Shown here piece after piece: positions 61-64,000 of a DNA stretch of 64,000 nt. The DNA comes from Heptranchias perlo. Taxonomy: Eukaryota. The position numbers and the translations under genes are program-made. Each line of letters starts with the position of its first letter. Position 1 is the stretch's first letter. The stretch lies in contig NC_090359.1 in assembly GCF_035084215.1 (NCBI RefSeq), forward strand, positions 13,950,001 through 14,014,000, given 5' to 3'. The notes under the pieces are model-generated. The model had not been told where the DNA came from. It did no database searches and saw only the letters and a list, made by a program, of their open reading frames with translations.

Positions 61-340
61 TGTCCCTGACCCCGTCTCCCCGTGCGTCCCTGACCCCGTC
101 TCCCCGTGCGTCCCTGACCCCGTCTCCCCGTGCGTCCCTGACCCCTTCTCCCCGTGTGCGTCCCTGACCCCGTCTCCCCGTGCGTCCCTGACCCTGTCTC
201 CCCGTGTGTCCCTGACCCCGTCTCCCCGTGCGTCCCTGACCCCGTCTCCCCGTGCGTCCCTGACCCCGTCTCCCCGTGCGTCCCTGACCCCGTCTCCCCG
301 TGCGTCCCTGACCCCGTCTCCCCGTGCGTCCCTGACCCCG
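61..340. repeat. 24-bp GC-rich tandem repeat (minisatellite), ~11.5 copies
   Basis: Unit TGCGTCCCTGACCCCGTCTCCCCG repeated head-to-tail; explains the periodic ORFs 58..420 and 154..432. Confidence 0.95.
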
Positions 341-939
341 TATTTGGCGTTTTCCCCTTTCACTGTCTCTTTCTCTTTCTGACTGAAACTTGTCTGATGA
401 GTGGTAACACTGTCGTACAAGGTACTTTCTGAATCCTCACTGCCTGTCTGTACAATTCACCTTCTCCCCCTAACCTCTGTGGTGTTGCCGTGGATTTCTT
501 CCAAACACACATTGGCCTCACCCCTTCCTGCTTTGTCAACATCTCTTCCTTTGAGCATTATCTCTGGACTCCTCCCCTTCGATCACCTCCCTGTCGATCC
601 CCATACCCCGCCCTCCCATTGCTCCACGTGTCAGATCTCATTGACTTCCATTGGTTTCCTGACCCTCAACACGTTCCCTATAAGTCCCTCCAAGGTTTGC
701 CTGTCCGACCTCTGCAAACGCCTCCATCTCCATGTCCCACACTCTTTGATCCTCCAACACTGGCCTTCTATGCATTCACTCATTCCTCGGTTCCCCTTCT
801 GTGGCAGTGCCTCGAGCTAACCCGGCTTTACTCTCTGTTAATCCCTTCTGAGTGACGGAAACTTCATCTACTCCTGTGAAATTCCTCCATCGACTATTCT
901 AACTGAGTCATTGGCCTGATTTTTAAAAAAAGACTTAAC

Positions 940-1460
940 GCCTGTTTTGAAACATCAACAGACCTTCTGCGACCTGAATGATTCTGTGTTTCATGTCTAC
1001 AAGGAGTGTGAGAGGTTGCAGCCCCTGTTCCACTATTTAAAGGGGCTGCTCCACAACTTCTGGCTGCGCTTCAGTCCCACGCTCCTCATCTTTGGCCACC
1101 GGGTGAGGAGGAGGGCGGGTCAGTCAGAGGATCTCCTCGTGGGCCTGTCCAAGGTGGCCATCCACAGGTCCAGGTTAGACGGGGCCCGTGGGGGCGGTCG
1201 CTCCAACTGTCGGCCTCTCTTCCCCGGATTTCTCCGTGCCTGGGTGGCCCTGGAGATGGAGCACGCGGTGTCTGCCGGTTCGCTTGGGGCTTTCCGCGAC
1301 CGGGGGGCACCGCAGGGGCTGGAGTGCATCCTGGACCGATATAATAAAATTTAAATTTGACGCTTATTTTGGGTTTTTTGGTTTTTCTGCACAGGAACAC
1401 ACCCGAAACCCCGCTTCTTGTGAAAGGGGGGCCTAAAAACACAAAAAAAAGAAAAAAAAG
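940..1460 (+). mobile_element. 5'-truncated Tx1-clade non-LTR retrotransposon (ORF2 C-terminus, 3' UTR, A-rich tail)
   Basis: ORF 947..1354 (ESVFH-like..CERLQPLF..FSPTLLIFG..GLECILD) matches the C-terminus of ORF2 at 17649..20855; ends in ggggggcctaaaaacac plus an A-tail. Confidence 0.9.
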
Positions 1461-7928: not shown

Positions 7929-7959
7929 GAAAGACATCCAATCGTTTCAAAACAGCGAC

Positions 7960-8850
7960 TTTTTTTTCTTTTTCTTTTTTTCTTCTTTTTTGTGTGTTTT
8001 TAGGCTCCCCTTTTATAAGAAGGGGGGTTTAGGGTTTGTTTATGTGCAAAAACACCCAAAGAAAACCAAAAACCAGTGTCAAATTAAGATTTTATTATTT
8101 TTGTCCAGAATGCACTCCAGCCCCTGCAGTGCCCACCGGTCGGGGAAACCGGGGAGTAAGTGAACTCCAGCTCCCCAACTCACCCGGCACCGTGCCCAGA
8201 GACCGGGAGAAGGGGCTCCCTCCACCCACACCGCCACCAACCGACCTGGCAGGTGAGACGTTTTTATTAAAACCGTCCACTAGGTCGAGCAGGTCCTGGG
8301 AGATGTCGAGCCGCGAGCGGGCGAATTCAGCCTCATCGGCCTCGCCCACCCCGGCAACCAGGACGCCCGACCCGGTGAACTGTATACTCTCCTCCGTGCC
8401 CGGATCCGCGACCCCCCTCATAGGCAGGGTCTCCCCATCCCCCCCCGGGAGGCACGGACTCGGTCTCCTCCCCCCGAGTGGTGGACGACTCCCGCCGATG
8501 GTGTGAAATGGAGGGTGGGGCCCCAGGATCCGCGTCAGGCGCCAACTCCCCTTCCACGGGGGGCCGTCCCTTTGCAGGGTTCCAGTCCGCTTCCAGGGAG
8601 TGGCGCCTTTTTTTCTTTCCGGAGGCTCGCGGAGGGAGGGTCTGCTGGGGCCCCCTCCTCCGCTCCCTCCTGACCAACGATCTGCCCGGCCTCCGTCGCG
8701 ACCACGAGATGTAGATCGGCCGCGGTCACGATCGCAGCCTCGGGCTCACTCGATTGTTCAGCATCCCGGGGACCAGCCTCCAGATGTTTGATTTTCCTCC
8801 CTGCCTTTTTTCCGCGAGAGTGCCCTCCTTCCCCCCCGGCGGAGGCCTTG
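7960..8850 (-). mobile_element. Internally deleted Tx1 copy: mid-ORF1 segment (8146-8850) fused directly to the 3' end and tail (7960-8145)
   Basis: ORF 8095..8421 matches ORF1 (FTGSGVL..SQDLLDLV); junction ccaccggtc|ggggaaacc shows microhomology; T-rich tail at 7960-8000. Confidence 0.88.
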
Positions 8851-9164
8851 TGTTGTTTTTTTTATTCTTCGAGTGTGTTCATGTGCAGTAAACAATAAAC
8901 CCAGAATATGTGTCATAATAATTTTTTTCCCTTGTGTTTTCGGCCCTCTTTCATAAGAAGGGGGGGTTTGGGTGGTTTTTTTTGTCGACTGGAAGTTCAG
9001 TCAGAATTAGGCTTTTTTTCCCCCTTTTTCCTTGTGTGTTTTTAGGCCCCCCTTTTATAAGTAGTGGGGGGGGGGTTCAGGGTGTGTTCATGTGCAATAA
9101 ACCAAAAAACCCAAAATAAGTGTCAAATAATAATTTTATTATTTCGGTCCAGGATGCACTCCAG
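8851..9164 (-). mobile_element. String of short Tx1 3'-UTR and 5'-end fragments separated by oligo(T) runs
   Basis: Pieces at ~8866-8920, 8928-8975, 8984-9012 and 9013-9164, each bounded by T-runs; they contain the ggcccccc-ttttataag-gggg 3' motif or the actggaagttcagtcag 5' motif. Confidence 0.8.
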
Positions 9165-9180
9165 TTTCGTCTAGTTTTCT

Positions 9181-9240
9181 CGTTTAGCCTCATCTGGGAC
9201 AATTGGAGTCAGTTGACTGCAGGTTGTGTATAAAAGGTGC
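9181..9240 (+). promoter_or_regulatory. ZP3-like proximal promoter: three E-boxes and a TATA box
   Basis: CATCTG 9191, CAATTG 9200, CAGTTG 9210, TATAAAA 9229-9235, ATG at 9280; E-boxes are the known FIGLA-type sites of ZP promoters. Confidence 0.65.
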
Positions 9241-9279
9241 TGGTTGGTGGGTAAAGTGATAGTTGAGTTGTTTGGTATC

Positions 9280-12089
9280 ATGGGGGATTTTGTGGTGAGA
9301 GGTTTGTTCCCGGTGCTGGTGTTAGTTGGAGTGGTTTGTTACTCTGACATTTGGCAACAGTTTAGAGGGCAGAGATTTCCATGGAGAAGAGTAAAACCCA
9401 CCCCTGTGCCCCAGAGAGTCCCTTCCCCTGTGCCTCCCTTTGGTTCCCATTTCAGTGTGTCTGAGGGGAGAAGTCTGTCCCCACTGCAGACTGTGATGGT
9501 GCAGTGTGGAGAGCAGAACCTGCTGGTGAGGGTAGACATGGATTTATTTAGAACCAGGCACCTGATTAAAGCTGCTGACCTGACCTTGGGGACAGCAGGT
9601 TGTCGGCCAACTGGGATCCACTCTCAGAACCACACTGTCCTCTTTGACTATGGGCTCCATGAATGTGGCAGCAGATTGCAGGTAATGTGATTCCTCAACT
9701 CTTGCTCCAATTTCACTGTGTAGATTACTGCCCACTCAGAACTCATTAACATCGGGTGAAACTCCAGCCACTGAGGAGATCCCTGAATGAAATCTGTGTA
9801 TAAATTCTTGCCCACTGTTAAATATCACCCTGTGTGAAACTACTTCTTTATGTTGACATGTCAATCTTAGCTTTATATTTAAAAAGAACTTCAAATTGTC
9901 ACTGAGGGACTGCATCTTTCTTAAATGGGTCATTACTACTCTAACTCTGAGATTCAACTCTATTGGCCTTGAACCTTCACCTACATTTCTCCAAACCACT
10001 CTGTTCTTTTGTGCCTCAATTGATTTATCTTTTCTGTGCCTTCCTGTGGATATTCAGGCCTGTTGCCTCAACTTGTGGTCAATGAATGTTCAGTGTGGAA
10101 GTTCCTGTTGAGACTTCTCTTGAAAGATGAAACAAGTGGAATAATAATTGGGATACAATGTATTAAAGGGGAACTCCACTTTTGGTTATTACACCTGCCA
10201 ATCCCCTTGATTCCATGGATACAGGTGAGGTTTTAAAGTGATGTTGTGTTTTGTGCTCCATATCAGGGGTAACTTGAAGCCCCTTAAGGTGAAAGCTCTA
10301 TTCTATATGGGAAAGAATGCTCATCAAATCTGGCAGTGCCAATCATTTCAGGGTTTCTGACTGCAGGCCTGAAGTCCCCTGTAATACAAGGTGGACTGAG
10401 CAGAGTAACAGAGGCTGCTCCAGGCAACTTCAACCAATGGTGGAGCTGCTTCAATCATGTGTGATTTGAGGAGCAGCTAAAACCCCTCAAACTGCTGTTT
10501 AACAGGGCAGGAAAATGACCAGAAATAGCTCTTGTCCAATAAGACCAGCTCTTCATTCCTTAAGCTGATGTCTTTCAGATGGCTGGAGATTTCCTGGTCT
10601 ATACCACCCACCTGAACCATACCCCAAATGCTCGTGGATCTGTCATTGTGAGAACTAATGGAGTAGTCATTCCCATTGAGTGCCACTATTTTAGGTAAGA
10701 ATCTTTACTCTATTGCAAATGAGGTCTACAGGAGGTGCAGTTCTCTGAAGTTGTCCTGAAATTACACGCCTGTCCTTCCAGGAAGGGCAATGTGAGCAGT
10801 GACCCTATCAAGCCCACCTGGATCCCATTCAGCTCGACCAAGTCTGGAGAAGGGCTTCTGTCATTCTCACTGTGTCTTATGAATGGTATGTGATGTGTGG
10901 ATGGGGAGTGCTTTTCTGTCGTCTCCCACTGGGAGTTACACCCACTGTCTCCAACCCTTGTCCTCTTGTACTTCAGATGACTGGCTTACAGAGCGCACCT
11001 CGACTGTCTACTACCTGGGTGACCTCATTCACATTGAGGCCTCTGTTTCGATGACCAACCACATGCCCTTGAAACTCTACATTGACAGCTGTGCAGCTAC
11101 ATTGAGCCCAGGCAAGGATTCCACCCCAAGATACAACATCATTGACTACCATGGGTAAGGAGCTCTCTGCCTATTCCAGCTGGTTATGTCCCAAAGGTTC
11201 ACTTAATTCACTTTGTCTGTTTTTTTAATCTTTCTTCAGTTGCCTCCTGGACAGCAAAGCTGAGGACTCCTTTTCAACCTTTGTGTTGCCAAGAGGTGAA
11301 CGTGAGCTGGACAAACTCCAGTTTGATCTGGATGCATTCCGCTTCTTTGGAGATGACCGTTCCCTGGTAAGAGGAAGCCAAACATTGGGTTCCCCATGTT
11401 GGGAGGAGGTCACGAAATAACAACTTGTATTGAATGTGTTCCTCAGATTTTCATCACCTGTCACCTGAAAGTTGCTGCAGTGGATCGGAGAGATTCCATG
11501 AACAAAGCTTGTACTTTCCAGAATATGTAAGTTCCCTCTCTCACTCAGGGATGTGTTGTATTAAAGGGTGATGGACAACCTGGTTGATAAACTGATTCTC
11601 TGGTTTAGCTCGACCCCATTGGAAGAATTGACCAATGACGTGTGCGCCTGTTGTCATCTGGGCAACTGCAGTGCGAGGAGGGAATTCTGACTTGATTCCA
11701 GAGGAAGGAGGGATCTTGTGTATCTGGACCTGGTAGGACATTGATCCTCTCTGTGTTGGTGGTCACCCTTTACCCTCTCTAACTGGAATGTTTGATATTG
11801 CAGGGAGTGATGCTGAATTGAAGTGGGAGGGTGAAGCCTCACTTGGACCCCTGGTCATTCTGGATCCTGAAGTGTTAGAGCTGGCAACTGAGCCCCTTAA
11901 TGATGTTGAGCAAAGGATGCAGGAGAGGTCTCCAGGTGGTGAGTTGGCGGACTGCTGGTTTCCATTTTCCCCTCAATATTTCCTTCACTCACTGACCATT
12001 GGTTTCTTCTTCCGTTTTAGGTGTGGAGTCTGAGGTGGTCCTGATCCTGATCCTGGCCCTGACTGTGACCGCTGTCTCTGATCTCTGCT
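9280..12089 (+). pseudogene. zp3: ZP3-like egg-coat glycoprotein, copy 1, disrupted (exons 9280-9681, 10579-10694, 10782-10885, 10977-11154, 11240-11366, 11447-11526, 11609-~11732, ~11803-11937, 12021-12089)
   Basis: Collinear with the intact copy at 42004 in exons and introns; CGA>TGA stop at 11688-11690, 2-nt insertion ~11718, last exon cut by a Tx1 tail at ~12089. Confidence 0.88.
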
Positions 12090-12982
12090 TTTTTTTCTTA
12101 GGCCCCCCTTTTATAATTAGTGGGGGTTCAGGGTGTGTTTGTGCAGAAAACCGAAAACCAAAAACCAGTGTCAAATTAAGATTTTATTATTTTTGTCCAG
12201 GATGCTCTCCAGCCCCTGCAGTGCCCATCGGCGGAGATGGTGTCGCCATATTCCATCGAGCTACACCCACCCCAAGTCTCAGGCCGACTAATAACAAAGG
12301 CCTTGCAAAAGAAAACCTCCTCTCCCCAATTCCCACTGTGTTTGGAGAGGGGCTCCTTTGCAGGATTTTGTAAAAAAGAATATCCGTGATAGTGGGAGGG
12401 ATGGTCGAATGGGAAGGAGGGAGTCTGCAGGGGTGGGCTGCTGCAGAAGTGGGTGGAAGAGGGGCGGGGTTGCACCTTAACAGGTGGATCTTCTGGTGGG
12501 CAGGGGGAGGAGATGTCTTCCCCTAGACAGCTGGAGCTGCCCAGTCCTCCACAGATTGAAAAGTAACTTCACCCAGGCAGCTCCAGCTGTCCTGGGCCAG
12601 ACACTGGGGGGGAAACCCCCTGTTCTGTATGATCTTTCCTCCCCCTACCTTCAGTTGGTCACACTGCACCGCACCGACCTCCTCTTCCTCCCTCTGTTGG
12701 ATGGTATCGGTCAGCAGCAGTACACCCCTCACAGTGAATGGTGGTCTTCTTCTTCCTCCTTCCTCCCTGTTGGTTGTTTGTTCCTCTCCTTCTCCTTCTC
12801 CTTCTCCTGGATTCAGAGGTATACAAGCGAGGGCTGGTACTTTTCACCCTGCTCTCCACCCAGAGCTTTAACTCTGACCTCTGCTCTACTCAGCAGTATT
12901 AACTGGCAAGTTCAGTCAGGCTGATTCCTGGATGGATTGATGGTCTGTCTGAAAGACATCCAATCGTATCCCAACAGTGACT
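12090..12982 (-). mobile_element. Bipartite non-autonomous Tx1 derivative (5' UTR + ORF1 start codon fused to 3' end), ~0.9 kb
   Basis: 12230-12982 aligns with the 5' UTRs at 16830-17400 and 23570-24331; 12090-12230 is the 3' end with tail; junction gcccatcgg|cggagatggtgtcgccat. Confidence 0.85.
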
Positions 12983-13261
12983 CCTTATTTTTTCTTTTAG
13001 AAATTTATGAAATAGGACAATGGAAGTGATTGAACGAAAGGAGCATCCTAAAGACATTGAGTTGGATCAAAAACAGTTTTTTACTATTTTCACCACTCCG
13101 CTCAGCTCAGGAGTGTGGGATGGAAGAGCAGCCGGGGGTTTTATCAGCTACTCTTTTTCTGATGAGTCTGAAAGACATCCAATCGCATCAAAGCAGTGAC
13201 CTTTTTGCTGTTTTTAGCAGCCAGGATTTTTTCGCGACTTTTTTCCATTCCCAACAGCGAC
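12983..13261 (-). repeat. Mosaic of short Tx1 5'-end remnants separated by oligo(T)
   Basis: gaaagacatccaatcg..cagtgac at 13170-13200, cccaacagcgac at 13250-13261, and a 24-mer at 13110-13133 shared with 34123-34146. Confidence 0.65.
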
Positions 13262-16200
13262 ATTTTTTAGGCCCCCCTTTTAAAAGGAGGGGGATTTCGG
13301 GTGTCTTTTATGTGCAAAAATCCCAAAGAAAAACCAAAACCAGTTTCAAATTATAATTTTATTTTCCTTGTCCAGGATACACTCCAGTCCCTGCGGTGCC
13401 CACCGGTCGCGGAAAGCCTCAAGCGTACCGGCAGACACCGCGTGCTCCATCTCCAGGGCCACCCGGGCGCGAAGCATTCCGTGGAAGAGAGGCAGACAGT
13501 CCGAGCGACCGCCCCCACGGGCCGCAAGCAACCTGGACCTGTGGATGGCCACCTTGGACAGGCCCACGAGGACGTCCGCCGGCCTGCCCGCCCCCCTCCT
13601 CACCAGGCGGCCAAAGATCAGGAGCGTGGGACTGAATTGCAGCCAGAACCTGAGGAGCAGCCCCTCCAAATAATCACAGGGGCTGCAGTCTCCCACACCC
13701 CGTGAACAAATGAAACACGGACTCCTCCAGGCCGCAGAAATTGCAGGCGGCCTGGGAGTCCGTAAAATGGCGTAACCGCCGGTTGCACGCGACTGCTCCG
13801 TGCAACACTCTCCACCCCAGATGCCCGATGTAACACTGGAGGATCCCCAAGTAGAGAGCCCCCCCACTGGGGACCCCCGCCTCTGCCGGATGGCAGGCCA
13901 GGGCGTGTCCGGGCGAGAGACGAGGGCGAGGAAGTGGAGTGTGTGCAGGAGCAGCCCGTACAGGAAATACCTCCGTGCGGAGTGAAAAGGCACGGAGGGA
14001 ATTTCCCAGACAGCTCAAGTTGTGAGGCGCAGCCTCCCGAGCCAGATTCAGCGGAGCGTCCAGCCGGTCGGCGTCCTCCGGGCTGACCTTTGGCAGGTCC
14101 TCCCACAAAACTCTGCGCGCTTCCTCACTGGACGGATCAGGAGAGAACAGAGCCTCGTAGTAGGATCGAGCCCGGGCCCTGACTCCCTCCGGGTCCGAGA
14201 CGAGGGACCCGTCGTCGGCCAGCAGCGTAAGGAGATGCTTTTCCAGCGAGGTCCAGTTGCAGGTCCCTCAGAGCGTCCTTCTTCTCTTCGTACACCTGCC
14301 GCAGGACCGGAGCGGTCCCTCGCCTCGAGGGTACGGTTAAAATCCCCCCCGAGGATAATGCACTCGCCGGCGTCGACGGAGTTCAGGTAAGTGGACACTT
14401 CTTCAAAGAAGCTCACTTGCTCGGCTCCGGACCAGGGGGCGTACACGTTCACCAGGTGAAGCGGCACGTCCCCGTGGCGAAGGGCTACGTGGAGCAAGCG
14501 GCCCGGCACCGGCTCCTTGACCCCCAAGATCTCCGGCTGAAAAGTCGGGGCCAACAAGATGGCCACCCCGCTCGAAACGCTGGCGAGGTGACTCAAGGAG
14601 ACCCCCCCTCCCCATTCCAGGATCCACGTGGCCTCGTCTCCCGGAACGGTGTGGGTTTCCTGCAGAAAGCACACCGCATACTTCCCGTCCCGCAGGACCG
14701 AGAACTTGTCAAATCTACGGCGGGCGTCTCTGCCGCCGTTGATGTTGAGGCTGGCTATGGTTATCTCCATGGCAAGAGCACAGCGCAACCTACTTAAACC
14801 TAATGCGCGGAGGGAGCGGGGCCGCTAGTCGACCTCCTCTCCCCCCAAGAGCCCGGTGAGGAGGGATCTGAGCCGGCGCAACCCGACCCCGCCGCCGTCC
14901 TCCTCCGCGGCCACGGACGCGACGGCGACCCGGACCGAGCGGATTAGATGCACCGGCTCCGACCAACGGTCGAGGGCCAGCCGGACGCCATCGCGACGAT
15001 GGGTCCAACCGGACACAAAATCCCGGAGTTCCTCAACGGGGATGAGGGGAGACTCGGTGTCGGGCACGAGGGTGTCCGCCGCCGCCTCACTGGCGGCGAA
15101 CTCTAAATCCTCCCCAGTGCCCACCACCGAGTCCCCGACCTCCTCCGGGCCATCGTCGCCCGCGGCCGACCCACTCCCCGCACAGGGTGCGGAGAACGGG
15201 ACGGCCGCGCCGGCCGGCCCCGCCTCCGCCACGATCCCACCCCCAGGATCGTCGGCAGAGGATTCCTCCCCGGGCTCCACCGGGGGGTCCGGGTCAGAGG
15301 GCGGCTCCGGGCGAGGACCCTCCCCAGCCTCCGAGCGGTGGTAAACGGGCACCCGGATATAATGGGAAACCGGGGAACCCGGGGAGAACATATATTCCAG
15401 CTCTCCAACCTCCCCCGGCTCCGTGCCCAGAGACTGGGAGAAGGGGGTCTCCCCACCCACACCGCCACCGACCGACCCGGCCCGTGACATTTTCGTGTTA
15501 AAACCCGCCACCAGGTCGAGCAGGTCCTGGGAGAGGTTGAGCCGAGGGCAGACGAATTCGGCCTCGCCCGCTCCGGCACCCAGGACCCCCGACCCGGTGA
15601 ACGGGAAGCTCGCGTCGGCGCACGAATCCGCGGCCCCCCCCTTTCGGCAGGGTCTCTCCATCCCCCCCCGGGAGGCACGGGCACGATCTCCTCCCCCCAA
15701 GAGGTGGATGACCCCCGCTGGCGGTGGGAAATGGAGGGTGGGGTCGCAGGATCCGCTGCCGGCGCCGACGCCGATTCCCTTTCCGCGGGGGGCCGTCCCT
15801 TGGCAGGGTTCCCCTCCGCTTCCAGGGAGCGGCGCCTTTTCTGCCTTCAGGAGGGTGGCGGAGGGAGGGCGAGCCCCATGTCTGCTGGGGCCCCCCCCTC
15901 CGCTCCCTCCTGAATACCCGCCAGCACGGGCCCTGCCGCGACCGCGAGTTGCCGTTTGGCCGCGGTCACGACCACGGCCTCGGGCTGGCTGGAAGGCTTT
16001 CCAACCCGGGGACCAGCCTCCTGATGTTTACTTTTCTTCCGCGCCTTCTTAGGGCGAGGGTTCCCTCCCTCTCCCCCGGCGGAGGCCTCGTCGGCACCCT
16101 CCGCCCGCGCAGTTGACTCTCCCGACGCGGGGGCGGGTTTGGGGGGAGGAGCGGTGGCGGCGCCAGCCTCGGCCGCCGGAGCTGCTTTGGCGGCCAGGGA

Positions 16201-17552
16201 GACGGGGCAGTTCTTCCTCAGGTGCCCCACCTCCTTGCAGGCATGGCACCGCCCACCCTCTGCCGTCCAGAAGACGTGGTAGGCGGTCCCCTCGTGAATG
16301 ATACTAAAACCCCCCTCTGTCACCTCCTCCCGCACCAGCTTAACAAACGCCTGGCGCCGGAAGGAGTACACGTGACGGAGGCTGTTCTCCCTGAGGCCGA
16401 GCGTCAGTGGTGTCAACCCTGACCTCACCTCCCCCAGTTGACGTAGATGGGGGAGGAGGAGCTCGACCGGTAGAAAGGGCGGGACGTTCGATAACACCAC
16501 CCGCTGCGCGGTGGCCTCCAGCGGGTCCACCGGCAGGAAGGTCCCGCCAACCGTGAGCCCCTTATTTAGGGCCAGGGACACCGCCCGCTCGGTCCTCAGG
16601 AAGAACACTGCCCTCCCATACATTTTCGAGGCCGCGACGATGGCCGAGGGGCCGACAACCTCGGCCATGGCCTTCACGCAGGCCTCGATGGTCATATTGG
16701 GGTGAGCATAACATTTCACCCCATGGAGCCTCGTCAAGAGGCGAAATGGCGCCGGCCCAGCAGGAGCGTCCGAAATCGAAGGCGCGGCCGCCGTGGCGAC
16801 CCCCGCATACGTCCTGCTGGGACCGGGGACCGGCGAAGATGGCGTCGCCATGGTCTCAGGCCGGTGGATGGCAAAAAATGGCCTTGTGTTCAATGTAAAT
16901 AGAAACCGCCTCTCCCCTGTATCCCAGTACAAGTGTGGGAGAGGGGCTCCTTTGTCCGATATTTGGTTCTGTCTTTGTCTGAAGCTACTGCTCAAAAGAG
17001 CACGAGAGCAAGAGAGGGAGGGATGGCACAGGGAAAACGGAGGGAGTCCGCAGGGGTGGGCCGCTGGGGAAGTCGGCCAAAGAGGGGCGGGGTGGCACCT
17101 TCTTCTGGCTTCTTTCTTCCGGTGGGCGTGGAGGGGAGGAGATGTCTTCTCCTAGACAGCCGGAGCTGACTCGGCTCAGTCCTCCACAGATGACAAAAGT
17201 AAGGAACTTCACCCAGGCAGCTCCAGCTGTCCCGGGCCAGACACTTGGGGGCGGAATCCCCTGGTCGAAAAAGATCTTCTTACCTCCCCCGACCTTCAGT
17301 CGGCCACCCCGATCGCCGTCGACCTCCTCTTCCTGCTGTTTAAGGCTGACAGCAGCAGCAGCACACCCCTCGCAGCTGCCTGATGTTTTTCGCCTCCTTC
17401 TTTCTTTCTCCCTCCTTCCCTCTCGATGGCTCTCCTCTCCTCTGTGCTCTGCACCTGCTTGCAGCACTTCCGCAAGGCCACACTCGATTGGCCGGCAAGT
17501 GGCTCGCCAATACCGACCGGCCCCAGCACTCTCCTCACAGGCTGGGAAGTTG
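13262..17552 (-). mobile_element. Tx1 element A: 5' UTR, frameshifted ORF1 (ATG 16851), ORF2 (ATG 14770) with endonuclease N-half but RT deleted, 3' end
   Basis: ORF1 CCHC knuckle CHACKEVGHLRKNC; APE motifs SLNING, LQETH, GGDFN; jumps at ~14300 and ~14040 remove the rest of the endonuclease and the whole RT. Confidence 0.93.
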
Positions 17553-17648
17553 TTTTTTTTTTAAATTAGGCCCCCCTTTTATAAGAAGGTGGGGTGTGGG
17601 GTGTGCTTAACAACTAAAAACCAAACAAACCAAAACGAAGAGTTCAAA

Positions 17649-20600
17649 TCAAAATTTTATTATCCTCGTCCAGGATGCACTCCAGCCCCTGCAGTGCCCC
17701 CCGGTCACGGAAAGCCTCAAGCGTACCGGCAGACACCGCGGAGCAACCCGCGAAAGAGGCAGACAGGCCGAGCGACCGCCCCCACGGACCGCGATCATCC
17801 TAGACCTGCGGATGGCCACCTTGGACAGGCCCAGGAGCAGGCCCACGAGGACGTCCACCGACCTGCCCGCCCCTCTCCTCACCGGGCGGCCAAAGATCAG
17901 GAGCGTGGGACTGAAGTGCAGCCAGAACTTGAGGAGCAGCCCCTCCAAATAATGGAACAGGGGCTGCAGTCTCTCACACCCAGTGTACAAATGAAAAACG
18001 GACTCCTCCAGGCCGCAGAAATCACAAGCGGCCTGGGGGTCCGTGAAATGGCGTAACCGCCGGTTGCACGCGACTGCTCCGTGCGCCACCCTCCACCCCA
18101 GATCCCCAAAGTAACACGGGAGGACCCCTGTATAGAGAGCCTCCCACTGGGGACCCCCGTCTCCGCCGGACGGCAGGATGGCACGCCAGGGCGTGTCCGG
18201 GCGAGAGACGAGGGCGAGGAAGTGGATGGTGTGCAGGAGCAGCCCGTACAGGAAATCCCTCCGCGCGGTGTGAAACGGCACGGAGGGAACTTCCGAGAGA
18301 CAGCTCAAGTTGTGAGGCGCGGCCCTCTGAGGGAGGTTCCGGGGTTTGGCGCCGAGGAGGAATTCAGTCCGAACAGGGGTCAGGTCGGACGGGATGGCTC
18401 CGCACGCTTGAGCCGCCTCCACACCCCGAGTGGAGTCAGGGCCGAGCGCCGATTTCAACGCCTGGATGGCGGCGGCCGCGTCCCCGGCACGCCACGAGGA
18501 CATGCGAGCGGCGAGCGCCCACGGCTCGAGCCAACCCGACCCACCGCCATCCAGGACGTCCCTGACTCTGGTCACCCGACCGGCCACAGCCCTCCGCTCC
18601 GTCAGCCACGAGTGGCCGAAGCCGACATCGCGGAGGAACGGATTCCCGAGCAGCGGCTCCTGCAGGACGGCCGCTACCCCCGACGGGTGAGAGCTCCGAC
18701 CGGAGGCGACCATGTTCCAGACCCTGAGCAGATTCTGGTACAAGACAGGCAGCTCCTGCAAAGACATGCGGCCGTCCACCAGCGAGACGAACAGGAGCTG
18801 CGTGTCGTAGTTCAGGCCGTGCAGCTGGCGGAAAAAGTACGTCGCCAGCGCACGCCATCTAAGAGGACGCTCATCGTACAGGTATCGCCGCAGCGTCCGA
18901 AGGCGGAAAGTTGCCACCTGGGTGCGGACGCACACCAGCCCCTGACCGCCCTCCCTAAGCGGGAGACTCAGGACTGCGGCAGCGACCCAGTGTATCCCTT
19001 TGGCCCAGAAGAAGTCGACGAACTTCCTCTGAATCTTGGCGACAAAATCAGGGGGGGGGGTCAAAGTGACCAATCTGTACCACAACATGGCGGCCACCAG
19101 CTGGTTTATGACCAGCACACGACCCCTGTAGGATAACACTCGGAGCAGTCCTGTCCAGCGCGCCAGGCGAGCGGCGACTTTGGCCTCCAGCTCTTCCCAG
19201 TTCGCCGGCCAGGCTTCCTCGGCAGGGCCGAGGTAGACTCCCAGGTACCGGAGGTGCGTGGTACTCCAGGCGAAAGCCCTGAGCTCCTCCGGCATGGAGT
19301 CCACCCGCCACTGACCCACCAGGAGTCCGGAACATTTCTCCCAGTTGATTCTTGCGGAGGACACGGCAGAGTAGACCTCTTGGCACTCGCGCATCCTCCG
19401 CAAGTCAAGGGGATCGGTGACCACGAGGAGCACGTCGTCGGCGTAAGCCGAAAGGACGACCTCCACGCCCGGCTCGCGCAGAGCCAGTCCCGACAACCTC
19501 TTTCGCAAGAGGCGCAGGAAAGGCTCCACGCAGACGGTGTATAATTGGCCGGACATGGGGCACCCCTGACGCACTCCTCTCCCGAAGCGAAGGGGCGCCG
19601 TCAAGGATCCGTGAACCTTAATCAGACACTCCGCGGCGGCGTACAGAAGTCGGATCCGGGCGACGAAATGCGACCCGAACCCGAAAGCGCGCAGAGTCCC
19701 GAATAGATACTCGTGATCCACCCTGTCGAACGCCTTCTCCTGATCCAAGGTAAGGAAGGCGACCGACAGACCAGCCCTCTGGGAATGGTGGATCAGGTCC
19801 CGGACCAGGTGGATGTTATCGTGGATCTTCCGACCCGGGACCGTGTAGGACTGGTCGGGGTGGATCATGTGGGCCAGCACGGTGCCCAGGCGAGCAGACA
19901 TCGCCTTGGCAAAGACCTTATAATCCGTGCTGAGGAGGGAGACCGGGCGCCAGTTTTTAAGGTTGCGGAGATCCCCCTTCTTAGGCAGCAGGACCACGAC
20001 CGCCCTGCGCCACGAAAGGGGCATCTCCCCGGTCGCCAGACATTCCCCCAGGACCCGCGCGTAGTCGCCCCCCAGGACGTCCCAGAAGGCCCTGAGGAAC
20101 TCCACGGTCAGCCCATCCAGCCCCGGGGACTTGCCCCTGGAGAGCTGGTGGAGGGCGCCGGTCAGCTCCGCCAAACTGAGCGGAGCGTCCAGACTGTCGG
20201 CGTCCTCCGGGCCGACCTTCGGCAGGTCCTCCCACAAAACTCTGCGCGCCTCCTCGCTGGACGGATCCGGAGAGAACAGAGCCTCGTAGAAAGATCGAGC
20301 CCGGGCCCTGACTCCCTCCGGGTCCGAGACGAGGGACCCGTCGTCGGCCAGCAGCGTAAGGAGCTGCTTACGAGCCCCCCGCCGCTTTTCCAGCGAGTAG
20401 AAGAAGGGAGAGCCGCGGTCCAGGTCCCGCAGGAGCTGGAGCCGCGACCTCACGTACGCTCCTCGGGACCCGACCAGTTGCAGGTCCCTCAGAGCGTCCT
20501 TCCTCTCCTCGTACACCTGCCGCAGGGCCGGATCCTCGGCGGCCTGACCGAGACGGGACTCCAGGCCAAGCACCTCCTGCTCCAACCGCCTGACCTCGGA

Positions 20601-21523
20601 CTCCCGCCTCTTAGTCGACCCCCTCGCGTACTCTTGACAGAAGAGGCGGACGTGAGCCTTGCCCACGTCCCACCAGAGCCTCAAGGAGGAGAAGCCTCCC
20701 CGCTTCCCTCTCCAGTCGCTCCAGAACAGACGGAACGAGTCCCGGAACCGCGCGTCCTCCAGCAGCCGGTTGTTAAAGTGCCAGTACGCGGACCCCGACC
20801 GGGCGCGGAGCAGAGCGAGCTCCATCCACACCAGGTGGTGGTCCGAGCACGACACCGGCCGGATGGAGGCCGACGGGATGCAGGAGGCGTACGCCCGCGA
20901 AACGTACAGGCGGTCGATTCTGGAGCTTCCCCCCTCCGGCCCTCACAAAGGTGAACTGGCCGGAGTCGGGATGGAGATTCCGCCAGACGTCCACCAAGGC
21001 GAAGGACCCGACCAGGTCCCTCAACTTCTCCGCCGCCGTTCGGGCACGCGCGGGACCGGAGCGGTCCCTCGCCTCGAGGGTACGGTTAAAATCCCCCCCC
21101 CCGAGGATAATGCACTCGCCGGCGTCGACGGAGTTTAGGTAAGTAGACACTTCCTCAAAGAAGCTCACTTGCTCGGCTCCGGACCAGGGGGCGTACACGT
21201 TCACCAGGTGAAGCGGCACGTCCCCGTGGCGAAGGGCTACGTGGAGCAAGCGGCCCGGCACCGGCTCCTTGACCCCCAAGATCTCCGGCTGAAAAGTCGG
21301 GGCCAACAAGATGGCCACCCCGCTCGAAACGCTGGCGAGGTGACTCAAGTAGACCCCCCCCTCCCCATTCCAGGATCCACGTGGCCTCGTCTCCCGGAAC
21401 GGTGTGGGTTTCCTGCAGAAAGCACACCGCATACTTCCCGTCCCGAAGGACCGAGAACTTGTCAAATCTACGGCGGGCGTCTCTGCCGCCGTTGATGTTG
21501 AGGCTGGCTATGGTTATCTCCAT
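17649..21523 (-). CDS. Tx1 ORF2 endonuclease/reverse transcriptase, frameshifts at ~21355 and ~20935, small C-terminal deletion ~17738
   Basis: MEITIASLNING, SDHH, KSPGLDG, NWRPVSLL, DQEKAFD, GVRQGCPMSG, YADD, CDFCGLEESVFHLYTGC. Confidence 0.93.
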
Positions 21524-21552
21524 GGCAAGAGCACAGCGCAACCTACTTAAAC

Positions 21553-23594
21553 CTAATGCGCGGAGGGAGCGGGGCCGCTAGTCGACCGCCACTCCCTCAA
21601 GAGCCCGGTGAGGAGGGATCTGAGCCGGCGCAGCCTGACCCCGCCGCCGCCACCCTCCGCGGCCACGGACGCGACGGCGGCCAGCACCGAGCGGATTAAC
21701 TGCGCCGGCTCCGACCAACGGTCGAGGGCCAGCCGGACGCCATCGCGACGACGGCTCCAACCGGACGCAAAATCCCGGAGTTCCTCAACGGGGATGAGGG
21801 GAGACTCTGTGTCGGGCACGAGGGCGTCCACCACCTCACTGGTGGCGAACTCCAAATCCTCCCCAGTGCCCACCACCGAGTCCCCGTCCTCCTCCGGGTC
21901 ATCGTCGCCCGCGGCCGACCCACTCCCCGCACAGGGTGCGGAGAACGAGACGGCCGCGCCGGCCGGCCCCGCCTCCGCCACGATCCCACCCCCAGGATCG
22001 TCAGCAGAGGAGTCCTCCCCGGGCTCCACCGGGGGGTCCGGGTCAGAGGGTGGCTCCGGGCGAGGACCCTCCCCAGCCTCCGAGCGGTGAAAAACCGGCA
22101 CCCGGATATAAGGGGAACCCGGGGAAACCGGGGAGAACGTGTACTTAAGTTCTCCCACCTCCCCCGGCTCCGAGCCCAGAGACTGAGAGGAGGGGGTCCC
22201 CCCACCCACGTCGCCACCGACCGACCCGGCCCGTGAGATATTTTGATTAAAACCCACCACCAGGTCGAGCAGGTCCTGGGAGAGGTCGAGCCGGGGGCAG
22301 ACGAATTTGGCCGCAACGGCCTCGCCCACCCCGGCACCCAGGACGCCCGACCCGGTGAACAGGGTGGTATCTGGTAAAAGCGGATCCGCGACCCCCCCTA
22401 TCGGCGGGGTCTCTCCATCCCCCCCGGGAGGCACGGGCACGATCCCCTCCCCCCGAGAGGTAGATGACCCCCGCCGCTGTTCGGATGTCACGGGCGGGGC
22501 CGCAGGATCCGCGACCGGCACCGACTCCCCTTCCACGGGGGGCCGTCCCTTAGCAGGGAGCCCGTTCGCTTCCGGGGAGTGGCGCCTCTTTTTCTTCCAG
22601 GAGGGTCGCGGAGGGAGGGGGGACTCCATGTCTGCTGGGACCCCCACCTCCGCTCCCTCCTGATCACCCGCCAGCCCGGGCTCTGTCGCGACCGCGAGAT
22701 GTTGACTGGCCGCGGTCACGACCTCGGGCTGACTGAGATCTTCTCTGTCCCGGGGACCAGCCTCTAAATTCTTCCTCTTTCTCCGCACTTTCTTCTGGCG
22801 AGGGTTCCCCTCCTCCCCCCTGGCGGAGGCCTCGACGCCAACCTCCACCCGCGCAGTTGACTCTCCCGACGCGGGGGCGGGGTTGGGGGAGGAGCGGTGG
22901 CGGCGCCAGCCCCGGCCGCCGTAGCTGTTTTGGCGGCCTGAGAGGCGGGGCAGTTCCTCTTCAGGTGCCCCACCTCCTTACAGGCATGGCACCGCCCACC
23001 CTCTGCCGTCCAAAAGACGCGGTAAGGGGTCCCCTCATGGAGGGCGTTAAAGCCCCCCTCCGTAACCTCCTCCCGTGCCAGCTTGACGAATGCCTGGCGA
23101 CGGAAGGAGTAAACATGCCGGAGGCTGTTCTCCCTGAGTCCGAGCGGCAGCGGCGTTACCCCCGACCTCACCTCCCCCAGTTGACGTAGGTGGGGGAGGA
23201 GGAGCTCGTCCGACAGGAAAGGCGGGACGTTGGATAAAATGACCCGCTGCGCGGTGGCCTCCAGCGGGTCCACCGGCAGGAAGGTCCCGCCAACCGTGAG
23301 CCCCTTACTAAGGGCCAGGGACACCGCCCGCTCGGACCTCAGGAAGAACACCGCCCTCCCGTACATTTTCGAGGCCGCGACGATGGCCGAGGGGCCGACA
23401 ACCTCGGCCATGGCCTTTACGCAGGCCTCAATGGTCATGTTGGGGTGGGCGTAGCTCTTCACCCCATGCTTCCTCGTAATGAGGCGGAAAGGCGCCGGCC
23501 CAGCAGGAGCGGCACGAACTGTAGGAGCGGCCCCCGAGGTAACCGCCGCATACGTCCTGCTGGGTCCCGGCACCGGCGAAGATGATGAAGCCAT
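21553..23594 (-). CDS. Tx1 ORF1 nucleic-acid-binding protein (CCHC zinc knuckle), one frameshift at ~22880
   Basis: ORFs 22764..23594 and 21553..22848; MASSSSPV..HGVKSY..ASKMYGRAVFFL..LSNVPPF..CHACKEVGHLKRNC. Confidence 0.88.
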
Positions 23595-38539: not shown

Positions 38540-38860
38540 ATCTTTATATTGATGGAGTAAATAAGGGGAAACTGATTCCAGTAGCAGACCGGTTAGTAAC
38601 CAGCAAACACAGATTTAAGGTGATTGGTAAAAGAACCAGAAGTGACACGAAACTTTTTTCAGTGTTCTGATCTGGAATGCATTGACTCATCGGGTGGTGG
38701 AAGCAGATTTAATAACTTTCAAAAGGAAATTGGATAAATACTTGAAGGGGGAAAAGAGCAGGGGAGTGGGACTAATTGGATAGCTCTTTCAAAGAGGCAG
38801 CATAGGCACAATGGGCTGAATGGCTTCTTTCTGTGCTGTAATAGGATATTATGATCTCTA
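38540..38860 (+). mobile_element. CR1 LINE 3' end
   Basis: tttaaggtgattggtaaaagaacc..tctggaatgc..tggataaatacttg..gggctgaatggc. Confidence 0.8.
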
Positions 38861-38974
38861 AAGGCACTTTTGGGATATCAATGTCACCACATTTCATACG
38901 TTGTTGAGCCATAATTTTACGAGTCAGTGTGAATTATCTGGTAGCTTTGACTGCTGCATAGTTCGCACCTTTGA

Positions 38975-39340
38975 GGTGTAGTCACTGTTGTAAGGTAAGA
39001 AATGCGGCAGTCAATTTGCCTCCAGCAAGGACCCAAAAACAGCAATGAAATATTGACCTGATAATCTGTTTTAGTGATGTTAGTTGAGGGATAAATATTG
39101 GTCCAGATATTGGGGAGAACTCCGCTGCTCTTCCTCGAAATAGTGCTGTGGGATATTTTACGTCCACCTGAGAGAGCAGATGAGGCCTCGATTTAATATC
39201 ACATCCAAAAGACGGCACCTCCGACAGTACAGCACTCCCTTAGTCAGCCTAGATTATGTGCTCAAGTCTCTAGATGATGACTTGAACCCACAACCTTCTG
39301 ACTCTGAGGTGAGAGTGCTGCCACTGAGCCACAGCTGACA
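38975..39340 (-). mobile_element. DeuSINE (SacSINE1/AmnSINE1-like) with tRNA head
   Basis: Reverse strand: gtggctcagtgg A-box, ggttcaagtc B-box, Deu core gtgctgtactgtcggaggtgccgtctttt..caggtggacgtaaaatatccc. Confidence 0.82.
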
Positions 39341-39770
39341 CAAATGGAGATGTTTGTGTGGGTGACATTGCATTCAGTAATCTTCACTGCCTCTCATTCT
39401 CGCTGAATATCCTGAATTTTACCAAACAACATTTCATGAGAATCAAAACTAAAAATGATGCATCCCACAATGCTTTGCCCAGTTGATGCCCCCATGCTGC
39501 CAATCCTCAGACACACCCATTCTCTATATTAGAACTGGGGACGATTCACACCATCCATGGGATGGAATTTCCATTTCTCTGACCAATGGATGGTTTGCAA
39601 ATTCACTCAAGACAACTTGATTGCTTTGAATATTGTCTCAACATCACAATCACTAACAAGTAATAAACTTGACCAGATTATGAAAAGCCACTTCAGTGAA
39701 AATATCAAATTATTATCAAATAATTCAAAGTTATGATTCCAAGAGATTGAAACAAAGAGAAACTTTCAGA

Positions 39771-41619
39771 TTTTTTTTTTTCTTTTTTTTTCACTTTCAG
39801 ATTTTTTTTTTTCCTTTTTTCTTTTTTTAAATTTTGTTAGGCCCCCCTTTTATAAGAAGGGGGTGTGGGGTGTGCTTAAATACTAAAACCAAACAAACCA
39901 AAACCAAGTGTTCAAATTAAAATTTTATTCTCCTCGTCCAGGATACACTCCAGCCCCTGCGGTGCCCACCGGTCGTGGAAAGCCTCGAGCGGACCGGCAG
40001 ACACCGCGTGCTCCATCTCCAGGGCCACCCGGGCGCGGAGCATTCCGCGGAAGAGAGGCAGACAGGCCGAGCGACCGCCCCCACGGACCACGATCATCCT
40101 AGACCTGTGGATGGCCACCTTGGACAGGCCCAGGAGCAGGCCCACGAGAACGTCCACCGACCTGCCCGCTCCCCTCCTCACCGGGCGGCCAAAGATCAGG
40201 AGCGTGGGACTGAAATGCAGCCAGAACTTGAGGAGCAGCCCCTTCAAATAATCAAACAGGGGCTGCAGTCTCGCACACCCAGTTCACAGATGGAACACGG
40301 ACTCCTCCAGGCCGCAGAAATCACAAGCGGCCTGGGTGTCCGTGAAATGGCGTCACCGCCGGTTGCACGCGACTGCTCCGTGCGCCACCCTCCACCCCAG
40401 ATCCCCGATGGAACACGGGAGGATCCCTGAGTAGAGAGTCCCCCACTGGGAACCCCCGTCTCCGCCGGACGGCAGGATGGTACGCCAGGGCGTGTCCGGC
40501 CGAGAGACGAGGGCGAGGAAGTGGATGGTGTGCAGGAGCAGCCCGTACAGGAAATCCCTCCGCGCGGTGTGAAACGGCACGGAGGGAATTTCCGAGAGAC
40601 GGCTCAAGTTGTGAGGCGCGGCCCCCCGAGGGAGGTTCCGGGGTTTGGCGCCGAGGAGGAACTCCGTCCGAACGGGGGTCAGGTCGGACGGGATGGCTCC
40701 GCACGCCTGAGCCGCCTCCACATCCCGAGTGGAGTCAGGGCCGAGCGCCGATTTCAACGCCTGGATGGCGATGGCCGCGTCCCCGGCACGCCACGAGGAC
40801 ATCCGTGCGGCGAGCGCCCACGGCTCCAACCAACCCGACCCACCGCCATCCAGGACGTCCCTGACTCTGGTCACCCGACCGGCCACGGCCCTCCGCACCG
40901 ACAGCCGCGAGTGGCCGAAGCCGATATCGCGGAGGAACGGATTCCCGAGCAGCGGCTCCTGCAGGACGGCCGCTACCCCTGACAGGTGAGAGCTCCGACC
41001 GGAGGCGACCATGTTCCAGACCCTGAGCAGATCCTGGTAAAAGACAGGCAGCTCCTGCAAAGACGTGCGGCCGCCCACCAGCGAGACGAACAGGAGCTGC
41101 GTGTCGTAGTTCAGGCCGTGCAGCTGGCGGAAAAAATACGTCGCCAGCGCACGCCATCTAAGAGGACGCTCAACGTACAGGTATCGCCGCAGCGTCCGAA
41201 GGCGGAAAGTTGCCACCTGGGTGCGGACGCACTCCAGCCCCTGACCGCCCTCCCTAAGCGGGAGACTCAGGACCGCGGCAGCGACCCAGTGTATCCCTCT
41301 GGCCCAGAAGAAGTCGACGAACTTCCTCTGAATCTTGGCGACAAACTCGGGGGGTGGGGTCAAAGTGACCAACCGGTACCACAACATGGCGGCCACCAGC
41401 TGGTTTATGAACAGCAGTCGACCCCTGTAGGATAACACTCGGAGCAGTCCTGTCCAGCGCGCCAGGCGAGCGGCGACCTTGGCCTCCAGCTCTTCCCAGT
41501 TCACCGGCCAGGCTTCCTCAGCAGGGCCGAGGTAGACTCCCAGGTACCGGAGGTGCGTGGTACTCCAGGCGAAAGGCCTGAGCTCCTCCGGCAGGGAGTC
41601 AACCCGCCACTGACCCACC
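39771..41619 (-). mobile_element. 5'-truncated Tx1 copy (last ~1.8 kb of ORF2 plus tail)
   Basis: Aligns with 17553-19321; T-tail 39771-39830. Confidence 0.95.
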
Positions 41620-41652
41620 AGAAAACTAGACGAAACTGGAGTGCATCCTGGA

Positions 41653-41959
41653 TATCCACAGGTCCAGGATGCTCGCGGTCCGTGGGGGCGGGCGCTCGGA
41701 CTGTCTGCCTCTCTTTCGCGGGATGCTCCGCGCCCGGGTGGCCCTGGAGATGGAGCACGCGGTGTCTGCCGGTACGCTTGAGGCTTTCCACGACCGGTGG
41801 GCACCGCAGGGGCTGGAGTGCATCCTGGACGAGGAAAATAAAATTTTAATTTGATGCCTGGTTTCGTTTTATTTGGTTTTTAGTACTTAAGCACACCCCA
41901 CACCCCCCCCCTTCTTATAAAAGGGGGGCCTAAAAAACACAAAAAAAAAGAAAAAAAAG
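41653..41959 (+). mobile_element. 5'-truncated Tx1 3' end, head-to-head with the preceding copy; tail ends at the ZP3 TATA position
   Basis: ORF 41669..41854 RARVALEMEH..GLECILDEENKILI; tail aaaaaaaag|ggtgctgg. Confidence 0.93.
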
Positions 41960-42003
41960 GGTGCTGGTTGATGGGTAAAGTGATAGTTGAGTTGTTTGGT
42001 ATC

Positions 42004-63930: not shown

Positions 63931-64000
63931 ACTAATAATGAAATACCATGGATGAATAAAGAGATAAGATCAGAATTGAAACTAAAGAAAAAGGCATACA

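Follow-up and report, generated by a model that had tools for sequence, protein, structure and literature searches.

The window, meaning the whole stretch of DNA analysed, is a 64,000-nt segment of the Heptranchias perlo genome (NC_090359.1, positions 13,950,001-14,014,000; assembly GCF_035084215.1). It contains two ZP-domain genes and three ferritin genes interspersed with Tx1 retrotransposon sequence (Table 1). The ZP-domain genes are presumed to be ZP3, a name taken over from a preliminary description of the sequence; spliced joints in RNA were found for gene 1, in which Pfam recognizes ZP-N only. An alignment search of the window returned 16 Tx1 alignments, with no match in 42-64 kb or in any intron, in line with the earlier remark that the CR1-rich 45-64 kb holds no Tx1 junction.

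Table 1. Genes, promoters and Tx1 sequences in the window
Feature	Position	Strand	Remarks
Tx1 3' fragment	965..1460	+	Tail, then Tx1 5'-head-like sequence
Tx1 fragment stack upstream of ZP3-1	7929..8972	-	Two 3' ends with an ORF1 piece between them; left edge is a match to -74..-41 of other ZP3 promoters
Tx1 3' fragment before ZP3-1	9013..9164	-	Inherited
ZP3-1 proximal promoter	9165..9235	+	TATA box 9229-9235; position 9236 is a recurrent insertion site in other ZP3 copies
ZP-domain gene 1 (ZP3-1)	9280..12088	+	Interrupted in the last exon by Tx1 (12089)
Tx1 with internal deletion	12089..13262	-	3' end joined to 5' UTR, then head/promoter-like pieces that recur elsewhere as 3' tags
Tx1 element A	13263..17545	-	Internally deleted
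Tx1 element B	17550..24322	-	Near full-length, frames interrupted; putative ORF1 zinc knuckle and ORF2 RT; 3' end at head of element A, 5' end head-to-head with ferritin-1 promoter
Ferritin-1 promoter	24323..24648	+	CCAAT boxes and TATA box
Ferritin gene 1	24649..27382	+	4 exons
Ferritin gene 2	29609..31836	+	Promoter without Tx1, the empty-site reference
Older Tx1 fragment	33832..33911	+	Some 750 nt 5' of ferritin 3; overlooked in the preliminary description
Tx1 3' fragment before ferritin 3	34151..34328	-	3' tag and target duplication; inherited
Ferritin gene 3	34624..37186	+	Frameshift in exon 1 in this assembly
Orphan ferritin upstream region	39400..39803	+	Ends at the -320 insertion site
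1.8-kb Tx1 3' part	39804..41621	-	Unit duplicated in 29 of the best 30 genome matches
Inverted ZP3-upstream block	41621..41959	+	19 nt host and 300 nt Tx1 3' end; poly(A) end meets ZP3-2 directly after the lost TATA box
ZP-domain gene 2 (ZP3-2)	41960..44807	+	Own TATA box absent

On sequence grounds the family is a two-ORF non-LTR retrotransposon of the Tx1 clade. ORF2 carries the Pfam Exo_endo_phos (APE) and RVT_1 (RT) domains and is 50% identical to the Xenopus laevis Tx1 149-kDa protein over 1294 aa (full length); for the RT region the figure is 62%. Relatives occur in ray, sturgeon and turtle. The zf-CCHC match of ORF1 scored 17.9-19.6 bits, under the 20.8 cut-off; a CCHC motif can be seen in the translated sequence. 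Poly(A) tails, 5' truncation and target-site duplications, the hallmarks of TPRT, are all present; where the 5' end is visible (64 loci), 40 have duplications of 9-19 bp.

The four junctions that the preliminary description placed in proximal promoters are real, and alignment to empty promoters changed one position and removed a shared base. The junction at 9164, 116 nt before the ZP3-1 ATG (9280), marks where an antisense Tx1 3' fragment has its 5' end. The one at 34328 lies 296 nt 5' of the ferritin-3 ATG (34624) and is accompanied by a short duplication (34110-34117 / 34330-34337). At 41959, 45 nt 5' of the ZP3-2 ATG (42004), a sense poly(A) end joins the host at the base right after the TATA box of intact copies. 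Empty ferritin promoters moved the ferritin-1 junction from ~24331 (-318) to ~24322 (-327); it shares homologous host sequence with the ferritin-3 junction, as had been stated, but the two are ~15 nt apart and not at one same base. Other Tx1 junctions lie at 12089 within the last ZP3-1 exon, at the Tx1 5' heads 1460 and 17550, and at 39804, the -320 site of the orphan ferritin upstream region.

All four promoter junctions are inherited copies within the segmentally amplified ZP3/ferritin cluster. The 9164 type recurs at 17/58 cluster ZP3 loci, the 34328 type at 17/26 ferritin loci of the first ferritin cluster (C38) and at 7 loci of the second (C43), the 24322 type at 3/26 C38 ferritin loci, and the 41959 type at 17 of the 20 loci having poly(A) at the TATA site. 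A count of four out of five genes therefore carries little weight. An excess over chance is not derivable from the window alone; tests outside the window show one.

Repeated insertion was measured within the clusters by counting distinct junctions, not copies, at C43 and at the ferritin promoter. At C43, the stretch from -1.07 kb to -60 of the ATG contains 36/38 intervals and 10/11 distinct events (p ~2e-6); one of these insertions follows the TATA box immediately and has a 13-bp duplication. The base behind the ZP3 TATA box was struck in at least 4 separate events (the ZP3-2 type, L095, L102 and L097) and additionally shows nested poly(A) in 9 loci, while poly(A) is joined to ferritin promoter sequence at at least 7 different bases. 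In these redundant clusters, insertions also lie on the TATA box and in the 5' UTR. The absence of Tx1 from ferritin and ZP3 introns holds in the window and fails for the family, since one C43 copy lies in ferritin intron 1 and the 3' tags of L035, L044 and L299 derive from ZP3 intron 1. It had also been claimed that most junctions face away from the gene, which is correct for ferritin and not for ZP3, where many sense fusions occur too; dispersed copies are 13 head-to-head versus 7 sense, a difference that is not significant (p=0.26). The recurrence of all four window junctions as inherited sequence in many cluster copies is what would be seen if a few chance insertions had been copied along with the ZP3/ferritin unit. 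As an account of the promoter pattern this is highly improbable, because the clusters were scored by distinct junctions and the dispersed copies already contradict it: single-copy promoters were struck on many chromosomes, and the junctions do not all trace to one ancestral insertion.

The family has about 2,500 candidate 3' ends in the genome. Dispersed copies were scored for a non-repetitive CpG island within 1.5 kb, with promoters called by CpG content and the analyst's reading, not by annotation or CAGE. Such an island adjoins 23/77 dispersed Tx1 3' ends compared with 1/30 CR1-type ends (p=0.002) and 0/60 arbitrary windows. A strict island criterion gave 15/77 for Tx1 and none for CR1-type ends or arbitrary windows (p=0.01 versus CR1); at 500 nt the figures were 14/77 and 1/30 (p=0.06), so that at this distance the comparison with CR1 does not reach significance by itself. 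The CpG-free search pattern alone gave 11/28 versus 1/30 for CR1 (p=0.0009). A replication set added 4 of 24 further loci judged to be promoters (p=0.007). The counts leave out L052, L053 and L292 as duplicates (of 80 first loci), three of the four C1414 duplicates (of 18 replication loci) and five of the 14 extra loci, namely L068, L072, L075, L261 and L262; L261 had been flagged and is a repeat. Both L035 and L294 were retained despite their 1.9 kb spacing. None of the 26 flagged loci showed Tx1 ORF homology. Neighboring genes had Pfam-confirmed N-terminal (first coding) exons in 5 of the 11 cases tested, and a Pfam match was lacking in the other 6 candidate first exons. Insertions at single-copy genes concentrate 100-600 nt upstream of first exons. 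About three quarters of the dispersed copies have no CpG-island promoter within 1.5 kb, and the preference, seen in about a quarter of them, is a bias and not a rule. These results support a Tx1-clade family strongly enriched beside Pol II promoters. The proposed preference for Pol II promoters is supported by a genome-wide excess over CR1, and its oocyte specificity is not, as the dispersed matches are mostly housekeeping CpG-island promoters.

The excess could in principle arise after insertion, with near-random integration followed by preferential retention near promoters through regulatory benefit, slower decay by unmethylated islands or loss of other copies. Selection does shape the pattern, as 20 of 21 promoter-proximal copies lie upstream, and exact-match search patterns could favor well-preserved copies. 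Retention as the main cause is nonetheless quite unlikely. The CpG-free pattern is equally or more enriched (11/28 versus 12/49), the CR1 control was chosen by a longer exact pattern and yields 1/30, insertions that destroy a TATA box are unlikely to be favored, and selection eliminates promoter insertions in Drosophila according to the portion of PMC10018349 available to us.

A sequence-specific target was considered and rejected: motifs common after the tails lie within the target duplication and are transduced tags, and no target sequence reached >20% of flanks, the criterion given in the accessible text of PMC4494074, among dispersed copies. The true flanks of dispersed copies share just AA at the priming end (two A's in 30/40, the terminal A being demanded by the search). 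Targeting of tRNA genes is not general, as ARAGORN run with introns on 151 loci gave a single clear tRNA-Tyr, at the one place shared by L405 and L406, plus two doubtful calls with long introns. Insertion, which leaves the short target duplications, needs little sequence beyond this AA. The enrichment beside promoters is probably best explained by access to nucleosome-poor promoter DNA followed by selection, with a weakly specific endonuclease likely nicking open germ-line promoters.

Active tethering offers a different cause. An ORF1p or ORF2p with affinity for a promoter factor (TBP/TFIID, NF-Y or an H3K4me3 reader) would steer insertion to a fixed promoter zone, a model likened to Dictyostelium TRE5-A, whose ORF1p binds TFIIIB. 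The enrichment of standing copies far exceeds the 1.7-2.3-fold de novo bias of the I element given in the part of PMC10018349 consulted, the base behind the TATA box was struck repeatedly in two unrelated genes, and a C-terminal 80-residue segment of ORF1 shows 87-92% conservation between copies, compared with 49-65% in the linker before it. This conservation could also stem from recombination between subfamilies, however, and ORF1 has no known reader domain in Pfam and its C-terminus no homolog in Atlas and sequence searches. Distance and orientation are not fixed, most copies lie elsewhere and one adjoins a tRNA gene, which makes tethering unlikely. The reading we consider probable is a promoter-enriched Tx1 family with promoter-fused source copies, which likely nicks open germ-line promoter DNA and likely uses host promoters.

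Potential source copies are concentrated in the clusters. The ZP3/ferritin clusters (about 10 Mb) hold 54 of 63 ORF1-pattern matches, and 25 of the 30 ORF1-bearing copies examined start either antisense at a ferritin promoter or in sense at a ZP3 promoter. These 25 promoter-joined 5' ends represent three junction types, so that duplication and gene conversion could have spread the fusions. An element tree of 21 ZP3-fused copies mixes the promoter types (5 label changes, 11/17 forks open); the same tree is compatible with re-insertion as well as conversion. An uninterrupted 1319-codon ORF2 frame stands behind the ZP3 promoter at 6/20 loci. As with 3' transduction, which is known from L1, dispersed copies carry 3' tags: 25/67 dispersed tails match cluster sequence compared with 3/77 background stretches, and some tags may match pieces of Tx1 heads and not host DNA. 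Because the tags record source sites, the genealogy of source elements is readable from one genome. L405, a full-length copy on another contig, has a ZP3 leader of only 43 nt. The leader starts 32 nt after the first TATA-box base, at the expected ZP3 start site, and the copy is ~99% identical to the main ZP3-fused group; no target duplication was found at L405, the single such case.

Structure of this kind suggests that host promoters of the amplified ZP3 and ferritin genes likely supply transcription of source copies in the egg cell. The germ-line expression proposed in the preliminary description is borne out to this extent by promoter-fused full-length copies, cluster-derived tags and the L405 leader, and not by RNA contigs. 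Tx1 body depth was similarly low in all four libraries (X1-X4), the ZP3-rich one included, and one junction contig extends upstream of the TATA box. The RNA status of the libraries rests on spliced ZP3 joints, not on the record, and the contigs reveal neither transcript start nor strand. Contig depth cannot rank expression, so these data speak neither for nor against ovary-enriched Tx1 RNA.

In the proposed cycle, source elements would be full-length copies placed in sense behind the ZP3 start or head-to-head with the CCAAT-rich, divergently acting ferritin promoter; progeny do bear 3' tags that match such source sites. A host-derived 5' leader could then anneal to a sister promoter during 5' joining and restore the fusion; the same annealing may build 7-kb head-to-tail arrays, whose junctions segmental duplication would multiply. 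HeT-A and TART form telomeric head-to-tail arrays in which the 3' end of one copy meets the 5' end of the following one, whereas the arrays here are anchored at gene promoters with host promoter pieces as spacers. A more far-reaching version is offered tentatively: a vertebrate LINE without its own promoter would home to open Pol II promoters, re-fuse with every full-length insertion to the strongest oocyte promoters via host-derived RNA leaders and breed in the ZP3/ferritin clusters, which it may have helped amplify as a 7-kb recombination substrate.

Non-LTR elements with known target preferences insert into repeated sequences or at Pol III genes, and no vertebrate LINE is known for strong Pol II promoter targeting. 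No earlier description of such a family was found in the literature searched, which covered few subscription papers or Repbase reports; one may exist. The R2 endonuclease is restriction-like and acts at a single rDNA site. R2 is transcribed from its host target, and co-transcribed target sequence aids integration (PMC4494074, in part); unlike R2, the hosts here are protein-coding multigene clusters and most progeny insert elsewhere. Sections of the same source describe target preference as common in the Tx1 clade (Keno, Kibi, Koshi, Tx1-Mar) and name DNA transposons, U2/U5 snRNA and 5S genes, satellites and microsatellites as targets (PMC4494074). The passages at hand have these relatives recognizing targets largely by endonuclease sequence, whereas only AA is shared here and the sites are unrelated Pol II promoters. 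The present family is a variant within target-preferring Tx1, set apart by its Pol II promoter sites. In Dictyostelium, TRE5-A is a non-LTR element placed by position at promoters, and its expression gains from the neighbor gene (PMC5911963, in the text available). TRE5-A, of the L1 clade, is directed by TFIIIB to positions 40-54 bp from Pol III genes, always in one orientation; the Tx1 family instead lies at Pol II genes, in either orientation and over a wide range of distances. In Drosophila, new insertions of the I and P elements favor promoters, those of I about 150 bp 5' of start sites; for I the bias is roughly 2-fold and disappears among germline insertions, and human L1 has no active-gene preference (PMC10018349, from the part consulted). 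Here, a roughly 15-fold or larger promoter excess persists in standing copies. Intact ORF2 frames together with this large standing bias make steering of a LINE endonuclease by chromatin or a tether testable, and the family connects the germ-line strategy of a transposon with an amplicon of egg-coat and ferritin genes that spans about 8 Mb.

Host leaders were also sought on short dispersed copies and rejected as a general feature (0/64 truncated copies). Truncation lengths recur at about 142-147, 263-277, 575 and 975 nt, which may be RT stall points.

The window (C38:13950001-14014000), from a genome of 3.25 Gb, contains three ferritin genes (Pfam Ferritin) and two genes with a ZP domain (Pfam ZP-N); for the latter, ZP3 is a provisional name taken from the preliminary description. 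All 16 window alignments to a full-length copy of Tx1, a non-LTR LINE family, lie below 42 kb. Tx1 junctions had been described in the proximal promoters of four of the five genes. Those at 9164, 34328 and 41959 lie where they were placed, and the ferritin 1 junction exists, with the near full-length element B ending at about 24322 rather than ~24331. Every window junction is inherited across cluster copies, and therefore "four of five" does not count insertion events. The window is a single unit of a large amplicon, and a common flank accompanies 29 of the 30 best genome matches of one Tx1 3' end. Two patterns locate 68 intact ZP3 TATA regions, 66 of them on the window contig (C38) or linked contigs, and the ferritin start pattern has 80 exact matches, a second cluster (C43) accounting for 27. 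The amplification of both gene types is very large; for the ZP-domain genes it comprises at least 66 intact and about 20 disrupted TATA regions. Two copies (L172 and L182) carry hexanucleotide repeat expansions in exon 1 soon after the ZP3 start codon.

Amplified regions and other located features in the Heptranchias perlo genome (G000)
Feature	Contig or locus	Position
Amplified ZP/ferritin region	C38	9.5-17.8 Mb
Amplified ZP/ferritin region	C725	
Amplified ZP/ferritin region	C1048	
Amplified ZP/ferritin region	C1246	
Amplified ZP/ferritin region	C43	4.27-4.77 Mb
Other amplified units, one Tx1 insertion	C1414 (L420-L423)	
Other amplified unit, one Tx1 insertion	C31	30.81-30.87 Mb
Tx1 ORF1	L246	6995-9031
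Ferritin 3 exon 1, 1-nt deletion in present assembly	window	34624-34725
Rhodopsin-family GPCR frame, single exon (Pfam 7tm_1)	window	2061-3023 (-)
Tandem minisatellite	window	63124-63933
Tandem minisatellite	window	61-341

Repeated promoter hits are found within the clusters. Across 200 kb of C43 with 39 ferritin starts, 36/38 Tx1 intervals lie between -1.07 kb and -60 of an ATG, and merging intervals by shared junctions, a grouping of our own, leaves 10 of 11 distinct events in this zone (p about 2e-6). One C43 event sits immediately behind a TATA box with a 13-bp duplication, and another uses the same -320 base as window position 39804. Insertions at ZP3 have used the base right after the TATA box in the ZP3-2 type, where Tx1 poly(A) is joined behind a lost TATA box, and in three other events (L095, L097, L102); a nested second poly(A) occurs at this site in 9/20 loci. 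At ferritin promoters, poly(A) meets antisense host sequence at no fewer than seven different bases, from about -60 to -345.

Dispersed copies were sampled as 77 non-duplicate 3-kb loci on contigs C1-C18 using two exact patterns (the first 30 of 77 matches of one; the first 30 plus 20 more of 308 of the other; minus 3 duplicates). With Tx1 sequence and both interspersed and tandem repeats masked, CpG islands were present at 23/77 Tx1 loci, 1/30 control CR1-type 3' ends and 0/60 windows drawn from 20 arbitrarily chosen 10-kb loci. Under the strict criterion the counts were 15/77, 0/30 and 0/60, and under a 500-nt criterion 14/77, 1/30 and 0/60 (p = 0.06 against CR1 alone). The CpG-free search pattern alone returned islands at 11/28 loci, and therefore preserved CpG sites are not the reason for the excess. 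No Tx1 ORF homology was detected at the CpG-flagged loci (0/26). By reading of the sequence, 21 of the 23 flagged loci are promoters or first exons; Tx1 lies upstream of the gene in 20 of these 21 (13 head-to-head, 7 sense), and its distance to the first exon is mostly 100-600 nt. Among 11 candidates tested, Pfam confirmed N-terminal exons in five: ADA2-type, core histone, OSTMP1, Tom7 and the RNase H1 N-terminus. In a replication set of 24 loci, five were flagged; four of these were interpreted as promoters, and the fifth falls within a different ZP-domain gene. Pooled promoter loci number 25/101 for Tx1 and 1/90 for controls (p = 6e-7), an excess of roughly 15-fold or more over an expected share of about 1-2%, itself estimated from typical promoter numbers. 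The majority of dispersed copies have no such promoter. One copy bearing a ZP3 tag (L411, on C23) is inserted in another ZP-C-domain gene.

Target duplications of 9-19 bp show an AA bias only, and the Tx1 preference is therefore positional, not sequence-based. The family is a Tx1-clade member: its ORF2 is 50% identical to X. laevis Tx1 across 1294 aa, and the closest RT match is from a ray. The family does not satisfy the criterion for sequence-specific elements given in PMC4494074, and works partly like R2 and partly like TRE5-A (PMC5911963). Most likely, the endonuclease would reach nucleosome-poor promoter DNA in germ cells. Selection would then spare upstream insertions at single-copy genes and tolerate TATA and 5' UTR insertions in redundant clusters; for a Drosophila LINE, a weak de novo promoter bias is removed by selection (PMC10018349). 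Tethering of Tx1 to promoters is a serious rival to endonuclease access. An 80-residue terminal segment of ORF1, conserved among copies and with no detectable homolog, is a candidate tether. No comparable case was found in the portions of PMC9341512 and PMC6240941 available.

Tags after the 3' tails and one full-length copy (L405) suggest that copies that land behind a strong oocyte promoter, or back-to-back with one, may become source elements. Tags match window ZP3, ferritin or head sequences at 25/67 dispersed tails versus 3/77 background stretches. L405 carries a ZP3 leader of only 43 nt, beginning at the expected TATA-dependent start site; the copy lies about 90 nt downstream of a tRNA-Tyr gene. 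An ORF1 pattern has 63 matches, 54 in clusters and often spaced about 7 kb apart. The first 30 begin at a ferritin promoter (21, antisense), ZP3 (4, sense), behind another copy (3) or elsewhere (2), the promoter-joined 5' ends collapsing to three junction types. Sense Tx1 lies 68 nt behind the TATA box in 16/58 intact ZP3 promoters, the whole promoter precedes the element in 21/22 ZP3-Tx1 fusions, and the ORF2 frame is uninterrupted in 6/20 fetched fused loci. Zebrafish ovarian follicles show strong expression of zp3 and ferritin heavy chain (PMC1488847). Four RNA contig sets from one sample contain spliced ZP3, far deeper in X1, and Tx1 body at low depth in every set. Of the contigs, two span the join between ZP3 and Tx1 by at least 31 nt, one extending upstream of the TATA box.

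An apparent duplication at L102 spans 68 nt, and about 180 nt of ferritin promoter separates array units. Such long apparent duplications would fit 5' joining via a host-derived leader; unequal crossing-over and conversion certainly also contribute. Independent dispersed insertions have common 5' truncation lengths (about 142-147, 263-277, 575, 975 and 1360 nt), which may mark points where RT stalls or go back to source copies that were already short. Tx1 3' ends have a conserved terminal stem-loop, and the A tails are interspersed with G, often in tag-plus-tail chains without an obvious polyadenylation signal.
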